This document shows, one piece after another, positions 7,298 to 8,052 of a stretch of DNA of 64,000 bases (within the stretch, counting starts at the first letter, position 1; every line of letters starts with the position of its first letter). A program made the translations under genes and the position numbers. Below the pieces are notes generated by a model. The model did no database searches. It saw nothing but the letters and a program-made list of their open reading frames with translations, and was not told the origin of the DNA. Origin of the DNA: Tequatrovirus NIC06P2; sequence record OZ035760.1, one strand, 5' to 3'.

Positions 7298-7305
7298 TAT
7301 AAATA
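7298..7305 (+). promoter_or_regulatory. late promoter TATAAATA upstream of HNH endonuclease gene
   Basis: exact TATAAATA ~34 nt upstream of ATG 7339, AAGGA ribosome-binding site at 7328-7332. Confidence 0.55.
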
Positions 7306-7338
7306 TGTTTATCACTCGCTGTATCAAAAGGATATGTT

Positions 7339-8052
7339 ATGAATTATAAACTAATTTACGAAAAGTTAATCTCTAATGCTAAATCTCGAAAACTTGATTG
7401 CTATACTGAATCTCATCACATTATACCACGCTGTTTAAATGGCAGCGATGATGCTTCAAACTTAGTAGATTTAACACCAGAAGAGCACTATGTAGCTCAT
7501 CAACTTTTAGTAAAAATTTATCCTTCTGAACCAAAATTAGTCTATGCTGCTAACATGATGACAGTTTCCACAAAATACGCTAAACGCAACAATAAAACTT
7601 TCGGTTGGATTCGTCGTAAACTCTGGGAAATAGAAAAGAATAAAGAATTCTCCCAGGAGACACGAAAGAAAATGTCTGATGCAGTAGCTAATAAAGCAAG
7701 ACTAACTTGTCCTCATTGCGGTAAGTCTGGATTAAGCGGGAATATGAATCGTTGGCATTTTGATAACTGCCCAAATCACCCTAATCCTAAAGTTAGACCA
7801 CCAATGTCTAAAGAACACAGAAATAATATCTCAAACGGGCTTAAAGCAATCGTTCTTGAAGAAACATCCTGCGAATTCTGCGGAATGATAGGCAAGAAAT
7901 GCGTTATCGCAGCGCATAGAAATTTCTGCAAGAAAAATCCAAATGGACGCAAGAAAACTGAAAAGACTGGTACTTGCGTCCATTGTGGTAAAGTTACCAC
8001 TTTCGGAAATTTATCAAGGTGGCATAATGATAACTGTAAGCACAAACATTAA
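7339..8052 (+). CDS. freestanding HNH homing endonuclease with NUMOD3-like motif and three Cys/His zinc-finger-like repeats
   Basis: HNH core ESHHIIPRCLNGSDDASNLVDLTPEEHYVAH; FSQETRKKMSDA resembles NUMOD3; repeats CPHCGK..WHFDNC, CEFCG..HRNFC, CVHCGK..WHNDNC; opposite strand to neighbours. Confidence 0.75.
   Translation: MNYKLIYEKLISNAKSRKLDCYTESHHIIPRCLNGSDDASNLVDLTPEEHYVAHQLLVKIYPSEPKLVYAANMMTVSTKYAKRNNKTFGWIRRKLWEIEKNKEFSQETRKKMSDAVANKARLTCPHCGKSGLSGNMNRWHFDNCPNHPNPKVRPPMSKEHRNNISNGLKAIVLEETSCEFCGMIGKKCVIAAHRNFCKKNPNGRKKTEKTGTCVHCGKVTTFGNLSRWHNDNCKHKH

Follow-up and report, generated by a model that had tools for sequence, protein, structure and literature searches.

Why should a T4-like phage carry a gene of inverted orientation in the middle of its replication and recombination genes, and what does this gene do? 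The question arose from a 64,000-nucleotide stretch of the Tequatrovirus NIC06P2 genome (OZ035760.1), which we refer to as the window and which shares ~97% identity with phages such as LF73P1 and G2540 over 25 kb. Its minus strand encodes gene 44 (4944-5918), gene 45 (5955-6641), rpbA (6697-7086), gene 45.2 (7096-7287), gene 46 (8049-9737), genes 46.1/46.2, and gene 47 (10181-11200). Between gene 45.2, the left neighbour, and gene 46 lies a plus-strand open reading frame with an ATG start (7339-8052), which encodes 237 amino acids plus a stop codon. An initial annotation had described it as an HNH endonuclease gene that converges on the gene 46 stop and is the sole plus-strand gene in the first 52 kb. 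The coordinates bear out the convergence: the TAA stop codons of the two genes overlap in the palindrome TTAA (8049-8052, both strands), and the genes are arranged tail-to-tail. Over this distance the gene also appears to be alone on its strand, as the other plus-strand frames of at least 90 amino acids before 52 kb lie inside or overlap minus-strand frames. Two of these (38259-38642 and 41391-41705) were compared with the PHROG families and matched none, while the minus-strand frame at 38268-38627 matches phrog_1209 (5.7e-63). No paralogue of the endonuclease gene was found elsewhere in the window.

To which family does the encoded protein belong? It matches PHROG 655, “homing endonuclease” (E 1.5e-68), and BLASTP aligns it over its full length (residues 1-236) with T4 MobE at 35% identity (E 4e-33). 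Among 5.8 billion proteins searched, 2336 homologues were found at E <= 1e-5, many of them with the Pfam domain NUMOD3, and residues 1-94 are 69% identical to the product of a gene annotated mobB in phage CAM-21. The initial annotation had named Mob and I-HmuI-type endonucleases as the families to search; the former were recovered, and no sequence or fold match was obtained to the latter. Together with the intergenic position of the gene and its sporadic occurrence among relatives (see below), homology to MobE across both the nuclease domain and the tail places the gene in the Mob class, and its initial reading as a free-standing homing endonuclease gene stands.

An alignment of 41 full-length homologues was used to assess residue conservation. 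The start codon of the endonuclease is fixed by the invariance of M1 and Y3. Also invariant are E24, H26, H27, P30, G35, N41, H50, H54, C213, C216, H229, and C233. The first group of these, apart from P30 and G35, marks a beta-beta-alpha-metal HNH nuclease core at residues ~20-60 (7396-7518), in which the catalytic histidine, the structural or metal-positioning asparagine, and the metal-binding histidine follow in H-N-H order (H26/H27, N41, H50). The core described initially is thus present, and its residues are not degenerate. The alignment profile also matches the HNH motif of E. coli McrA (E 8.6e-4), residue for residue with EVHHVIP...N...H. The Pfam HNH model (PF01844) gives 17.0 bits, under its cut-off of 21.4, whereas T4 MobE passes with 24.6; membership in the HNH superfamily therefore rests on MobE homology and the motif. 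The AlphaFold2 (AF2) model, with a mean pLDDT of 90, consists of an N-terminal beta-beta-alpha core (strands 24-27 and 42-45, helix 47-60; pLDDT 96-97), two helical segments, and three beta-beta-alpha finger units. In Foldseek, local matches of the model to the HNH domains of Cas8-HNH and McrA were weak (E 0.4-0.6), as were the best matches, to CTCF-type finger arrays (E 5e-3). Whole-chain fold searches retrieved neither I-HmuI nor any other homing endonuclease.

The tail that follows the core is modular. A NUMOD3-like motif had been reported from the first inspection, and this claim holds in a weakened form: residues 103-115 (7645-7683) align with the true NUMOD3 of T4 MobE (46 bits), but score only 12.6 bits against PF07460, under the cut-off of 20.4. 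Given the alignment, “NUMOD3-like” seems a fair label for what is apparently a degenerate segment. Three tandem Cys/His repeats had likewise been described. All three are present as CX2C-X11-12-H-X3-C patterns at residues 124-144, 178-197, and 213-233, but they do not all end alike: W-H-x-D-N-C is found only in the first and third, the second reading H-R-N-F-C. Module 1 (C124-X2-C127-X12-H140-X3-C144; 7708-7770) and module 2 (C178-X2-C181-X11-H193-X3-C197; 7870-7929) are recognised by pattern and AF2 model, and the C-terminal module 3 (C213-X2-C216-X12-H229-X3-C233; 7975-8037) by pattern and invariance. No Pfam model reaches threshold over these modules. In the AF2 model, each comprises a pair of short strands and a helix (pLDDT mostly 86-95), and the putative zinc ligands are correctly spaced within these units, as would be expected of three C2HC zinc fingers. 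Module 3 alone is found family-wide, and T4 MobE also ends in such a finger. Module 2 is limited to the lineage found beside gene 46. The two extra fingers stand in for the NUMOD3 repeats of MobE and most homologues, and they mark the gene 46-side sub-lineage.

The gene is already known, as it is annotated at the same position in RB32, RB51, RB68, and dozens more genomes. A megablast of the locus recovered it in 59 of 505-526 related phage records (~11%, or about one in nine). Carriers include RB32, RB51, RB68, slur07, teqhad, REP2, and many others, in which the gene is mostly labelled “homing endonuclease” in RefSeq; T4, T6, RB3, and most others do not carry it. The initial annotation had suggested that T4 has no endonuclease at this position, correctly, as T4 has only a 55-bp spacer there, and the presence/absence survey it had proposed for the 45.2/46 junction of T4-like genomes reveals a sporadic pattern. 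Among the 59 Tequatrovirus copies, protein identity never falls below 95% (REP2 100%, RB32 99%), and the copies listed align in one piece. The RB32 copy, RB32ORF054w, has been described since 2006 as a [quoted passage not shown], and a 2010 review of T4-relative genomes counted two mob-like HNH homing endonuclease genes in RB32 (PMC2993671). Our literature search found no experimental work on the activity, expression, or homing of this gene.

Is the position beside gene 46 peculiar to Tequatrovirus? We found orthologues with 42-64% identity, likewise inverted and at the same site, across at least nine lineages that span four or more named genera, a distribution that is new here. In Yersinia phage MHG19, the gene lies inverted between the 45.2 homologue and gene 46, with 63% identity to the window protein (gp46, 65%). 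The same arrangement is seen in Mosigvirus ST0 (endonuclease 58%, gp46 82%), the IMG/VR contig L020 (64%, 69%), Pseudotevenvirus EBPL (44%, 45%), and Slopekvirus KpCCP1 (42%, 45%), as well as in three metagenomic contigs whose endonucleases (P0018, P0020, and P0023) are 56%, 49%, and 45% identical to that of the window. In most comparisons the divergence of the endonuclease tracks that of gp46, the exception being ST0. The tail-to-tail overlap with gene 46 also recurs, extending over 4-17 nt in RB32, MHG19, ST0, EBPL, KpCCP1, L121, and L122, while in L120 the two genes are called 3 nt apart. Some of these lineages include relatives that lack the gene: L011 in the lineage of ST0, and L021, L025, L028, and L035 in that of L020.

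What distinguishes a carrier locus from one without the gene? Relative to endonuclease-free phages, carriers are identical through rpbA and 45.2 up to position 7283, and alignment junctions delimit a segment (7284-8064) that takes the place of what T4-type genomes have between 45.2 and gene 46. These two genes are adjacent in endonuclease-free relatives, and the endonuclease gene interrupts neither them nor any other gene. The T4-type spacer of 55 bp contains a MotA box/-10 element (aTGCTTtA-N12-TATAAT), which is annotated “promoter” in phage Lutter; because the spacer has been replaced, this promoter is lost in carriers. We considered a replacement promoter for 45.2 inside the endonuclease gene and rejected it. 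The one MotA-box/-10-like match (minus strand, 7848-7823) is at chance level and carries no weight, because the pattern is frequent (36 occurrences in the window against 20 expected), and a sigma-70 scan gave fewer sites than in shuffles. At the left edge of the segment, 45.2 starts with GTG in carriers (M-A-E-Y) versus ATG in T4. At the right edge, gp46 ends in ...FTVMV in T4, ...FSVATIN in the window, and ...FSLAKIS in RB32, and the endonuclease ends in ...CKHKH in the window and ...CKYKPS in RB32.

Beyond the right junction, the endonuclease gene comes with a highly diverged allele covering the last ~210 bp of gene 46. This association is also new here, and it holds in three lineages with within-lineage controls. 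In the window, this allele spans 8053-8270 on the minus strand (codons ~490-562, from allele comparison). Its identity to T4-type alleles is 71-75%, against 98% over the adjoining 684 nt. The values for ST0 versus L011 are 74% and 97%, and those for L020 versus L025 are 68% and 98%. In all three comparisons the left flank is essentially identical, and the identity of gene 46 returns to background abruptly at codons W-R-D-I-A-E-K. The patch encodes the Walker B motif, D-loop, H-loop, and C-terminus of a Rad50-like ATPase, and the alleles differ at the protein level too. Among ~950 records that include the 3' end of gene 46, the window-type patch occurs with at least 95% identity in 58 and with 90-95% in two, all others being at or below 90%. 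This count matches the 59 carriers, and gene and patch therefore behave as one unit. We rejected a recent transfer of gene plus patch across genera, as the carrier-linked patches do not cluster (window-ST0 66%, window-L020 63%, ST0-L020 70%). The linkage could also be passive, a result of patch divergence itself, because no homology is left inside the patch for recombination. Moreover, endonuclease-free Tequatrovirus genomes have two deep haplotypes of the gene 46 3' end with 77% identity to each other, so this end varies for reasons that are possibly unrelated to the endonuclease.

If the patch protects carriers, the recognition site might be sought where carrier and non-carrier alleles differ most. 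A comparison of all carrier with all non-carrier alleles for fixed nucleotide differences yielded no diagnostic position, only a regional contrast. When 21-nt windows were slid along the last 330 nt of gene 46, the contrast was sharpest at codons Q-H-L-Q-M-K-K-V-G, 25-55 nt from the stop. Non-carrier alleles of all genera are conserved there at 0.90-0.94 of nucleotides, third positions included, which makes this the best-conserved part of the patch, and all eight gene-linked alleles deviate (0.64-0.68). This estimate draws on six to eight non-independent, phylogenetically related alleles, and the insertion itself alters the extreme C-terminus. On balance, the target probably, by a small margin, lies within the gene 46 3' patch. 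Its assignment to the specific 30-nt candidate is tentative, and the window would hold the resistant counterpart at 8076-8105 (minus strand; codons Q-H-I-K-M-E-K-V-G-R). Our best guess for the break site in the T4 gene 46 3' end is CATCTTCAAATGAAGAAAGTTGG.

How might the gene be expressed? An exact TATAAATA upstream of a ribosome-binding site had been noted just before the gene, and both elements are there: the octamer at 7298-7305, 33 nt before the ATG, and AAGGA at 7328-7332, 6 nt before it. The octamer is the only plus-strand copy in the first 52 kb. In this AT-rich window it is not enriched (13 copies against 10.5 expected), so a single copy means little by itself. Its significance comes from being kept at the same spot in diverged orthologues: it is found upstream of the endonuclease gene in five of seven orthologous loci, 33-45 nt before the ATG in RB32, MHG19, ST0, and L020/L038, and the two most distant orthologues have cTAAATAg or tTAAATAg in its place. 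By the T4 late-promoter consensus, TATAAATA is a putative late promoter of the endonuclease gene. The short 5' leader that follows (7306-7338) contains a motif, (T)TATC-N9-TATCAAA-N-AGGA, that is kept in all seven orthologous loci though the proteins are only 42-64% identical. The leader is predicted to be unstructured and folds worse than shuffles (z +1.75), on which basis we rejected a hairpin that hides the ribosome-binding site as in mobE; such a hairpin is not expected, because the gene lies on the strand opposite to early transcription. An autorepressor operator that resembles the homing site, in the style of I-TevI, was rejected as well: 7295-7345 aligned to the endonuclease-free T4 locus scores 14, below the shuffled mean of 17.5. 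A search for a terminator at the junction with gene 46 found none, and late transcription would therefore continue into gene 46 in antisense.

Taken together, these data make it very probable, as judged from sequence, that the gene encodes a functional homing endonuclease of the Mob class. We read the gene as a selfish, free-standing element. The enzyme would carry its HNH nuclease at the N-terminus and bind DNA through a beads-on-a-string tail of one NUMOD3-like segment and three zinc fingers. By analogy with the nicking and co-conversion described for T4 MobE (see below), we propose a MobE-like mechanism. Read from its own late promoter, the gene would supply enzyme only late, when copies of the phage genome are many. 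In a co-infection, the enzyme would most likely nick or cut gene 46 of the non-carrier within its last 50-210 bp. Recombinational repair, with the carrier as template, would then introduce the endonuclease gene along with the adjoining diverged gene 46 allele, and that same allele may protect the carrier genome from its own enzyme.

Three other explanations are less well supported than a homing endonuclease. The one that survives best, which we consider unlikely, is that the nuclease is kept mainly for the benefit of the phage, for instance as a weapon that damages the gene 46 region when a relative infects the same cell (through interference competition or marker exclusion), and not as a purely selfish homing element. 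The constancy of the lineage at one site, with about as much divergence as gene 46, would fit this explanation, as would purifying selection on the protein; dN/dS between orthologues is 0.11-0.20, a figure restricted to comparisons in which synonymous sites are unsaturated. An intron endonuclease that acts in phage competition has also been described (PMC11620839). However, a gene with such a benefit sits poorly with the small share of Tequatrovirus records that are carriers and with close non-carrier relatives that are common in every lineage with within-lineage controls. Use as a weapon is compatible with homing.

Secondly, the gene might be no more than a remnant, inactive or in decay, kept since its deletion would harm its neighbours. 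Its ends do overlap the gene 46 stop codon and abut the 45.2 ribosome-binding site, signals embedded in endonuclease genes are known to favour retention (PMC2988022), and T4 I-TevIII provides a precedent for a defunct endonuclease. Yet the catalytic and zinc-binding residues are all intact, the low dN/dS and the near-identity of all Tequatrovirus copies are not those of a decaying gene, and the sole minus-strand promoter-like match inside the gene is one that chance would supply; we consider this explanation improbable. Least probable of all, to the point that we give it hardly any credence, is a protein that acts chiefly as a zinc-finger DNA-binding regulator (an autorepressor or a modulator of 45.2/46, perhaps with the involvement of late antisense into gene 46) and only secondarily as a nuclease: the three fingers with their weak CTCF-type matches, the antisense transcripts expected past a missing terminator, the conserved leader motif, and the known autorepressor I-TevI (PMC2988022) speak for it, but the HNH residues are invariant, the promoter and leader bear no similarity to the endonuclease-free site, and the distribution is too sporadic for a regulator.

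Returning to the homing endonuclease, the shared site in diverse genera invites a broader and more speculative proposal, which we put forward as a possibility somewhat short of even chances. The three-finger Mob lineage may be an old parasite of the Rad50-like gene 46, resident at one site across the Straboviridae (Tequatrovirus, Mosigvirus, Pseudotevenvirus, Slopekvirus, and unclassified lineages) and diverging roughly in step with its hosts. It would maintain, and may drive, deep allelic diversity in the Walker B/H-loop/C-terminal end of gp46, and its predicted recognition site would lie within the final 30-55 nt of gene 46 in endonuclease-free genomes (consensus CAnCATcTnCAnATGAAgAAAGTtGG). 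If this is true, the protein being diversified is the nuclease subunit on which homing itself depends.

The value of these findings for annotation is small, as the gene is recognisable as Mob-type and already in public records. Their modest value lies rather in an experimental system: an uncharacterised Mob enzyme at a constant site in several genera. At least three lineages contain both carriers and non-carriers, an allele of 210 bp with sharp boundaries is co-inherited in an essential recombination gene, and a 30-nt stretch provides a concrete candidate target. The mapping of the target, and the manner in which a nicking HNH enzyme triggers gene conversion, are open to direct test.

How does this gene compare with known systems? 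The closest counterparts are the copies in RB32 (RB32ORF054w), RB51, RB68, and REP2, which represent this very gene, likewise between 45.2 and gene 46, with products that are 99-100% identical; RB32ORF054w differs only in the last few codons and the overlapping C-terminus of gp46. Among characterised enzymes, T4 MobE, encoded between nrdA and nrdB, is the closest. It shares the N-terminal HNH core, a NUMOD3 segment, and a C-terminal CX2C...WHxDxC finger, and its gene also lies beside a conserved gene of an essential pathway. [quoted passage not shown] A nick ~120 nt from the end of the flanking gene mirrors the gene 46 patch. MobE activity depends on the HNH motif, and mobE is inherited with co-conversion of its flanks (PMC2790892; PMC2988022). 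The differences are also clear. The mobE gene lacks its own promoter, points in the same direction as its neighbours, and is limited by an internal terminator (PMC2790892), whereas the gene in the window is inverted, has a putative late promoter of its own, and shows neither a hairpin over the ribosome-binding site nor a terminator. MobE combines several NUMOD3 repeats with one finger, in contrast to one weak NUMOD3-like segment and three fingers here, and its target is nrdB, where that of the present enzyme is presumably gene 46.

The resemblance to T4 MobB is more limited. It is suggested by the “similar to mobB” label in RB32 and the N-terminal identity to the CAM-21 mobB product, but it extends over no more than the nuclease domain (40% of the query), and mobB is located by alpha-gt (PMC2988022). 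I-HmuI and I-HmuII of Bacillus phages likewise join an HNH domain to an extended modular DNA-binding tail, and they drive homing, with co-conversion of flanks, despite being nicking enzymes (PMC2988022; PMC2790892); they are intron-encoded, unlike the free-standing gene here. Finally, gp28, gp80, and gp179 of Vibrio phage ICP1 combine HNH-3 with a C-terminal zinc finger and have been called Mob-like (PMC10055350). By tblastn they are 48-50% identical over residues 1-60. They belong to a distant phage family and to other loci, and the similarity is confined to the nuclease core, but the theme of the ICP1 study, nuclease genes at the boundaries of genetic exchange (PMC10055350), matches what we see at the gene 46 patch.

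In T4-type phages that lack the endonuclease gene, we found that the spacer between genes 46 and 45.2 carries a promoter for 45.2, made up of a MotA box and a -10 element (aTGCTTtA-N12-TATAAT; positions 1186-1240 of the T4 locus and 985-1010 of the phage Lutter locus), which is enclosed by a 9-bp inverted repeat, AGAGATTAT...ATAATCTCT. This promoter is absent from window positions 7284-8064. The endonuclease insertion deletes the spacer promoter, which leaves 45.2 and rpbA dependent on read-through from gene 46 in the phages that carry the endonuclease gene, where transcription must cross 780 nt of antisense endonuclease sequence. 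A MotA-box/-10-like sequence, TGCTTTAAGCCCGTTTGAGATATTAT, lies upstream of 45.2 on the minus strand (window 7823-7848), antisense within the endonuclease gene. Because this pattern is common in the window, with 36 matches versus 20 expected, this occurrence may be a chance match.

In the window and in RB32, 45.2 begins with GTG (window 7285-7287; M-A-E-Y...), whereas in T4 and other endonuclease-free phages it begins with ATG (M-E-Y...), and the left insertion junction therefore extends into the first codons of 45.2. At the opposite end, a hairpin with a 7-bp stem falls exactly on the convergent stop codons of the endonuclease gene and gene 46 in ST0 (approximately 3195-3225 of its locus; AAGCCTC-atTAa-GAGGCTT) and in the IMG/VR contig L020 (reverse strand), which also has the endonuclease gene; it may terminate transcription in both directions. 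Neither the window nor RB32 has this hairpin.

Comparison of the gene 46 3' end (window 8053-8270) with L002 and L007-L009, and with L010 and L012, revealed two deep haplotypes among endonuclease-free Tequatrovirus genomes, which share 77% identity; the remainder of gene 46 is 98-99% identical in these genomes. The coding end of this Rad50-like ATPase gene is a general mosaic hot spot. In an endonuclease-free, Mosigvirus-like contig (L011, approximately 4100-4250), the gp46 C-terminus is extended (...FTVMTVS) and has the M-S-K variant that is otherwise known from ST0, which encodes the endonuclease. Such features could have been left behind when an endonuclease gene was lost, or the allele could be a resistant one.

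Elsewhere in the window, long plus-strand ORFs at 35462-35755, 38259-38642, and 41391-41705 each overlap a minus-strand ORF and are probably shadows rather than genes. The latter two were searched against PHROG and gave no match, and the minus-strand ORF at 38268-38627 matched phrog_1209 (5.7e-63).

Downstream of its late promoter and ahead of its ATG, the endonuclease gene has a leader motif, (T)TATC-N9-TATCAAA-N-AGGA, that is kept in seven orthologous loci (window 7306-7338; upstream of position 2501 in L003-L006, L038, and L039) whose endonuclease proteins are only 42-64% identical. The leader is predicted to be unstructured, and the motif region bears no resemblance to the endonuclease-free site. 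Pseudotevenvirus/Slopekvirus-type loci encode a gene of approximately 565 codons beyond 45.2, in place of rpbA and gene 45 (L005 482-2182, L006 467-2176, L121 986-2683); it had no Pfam match in L121 and is annotated in EBPL as "chaperone protein DnaJ". In these loci the trio of 45.2, endonuclease gene, and gene 46 is intact.
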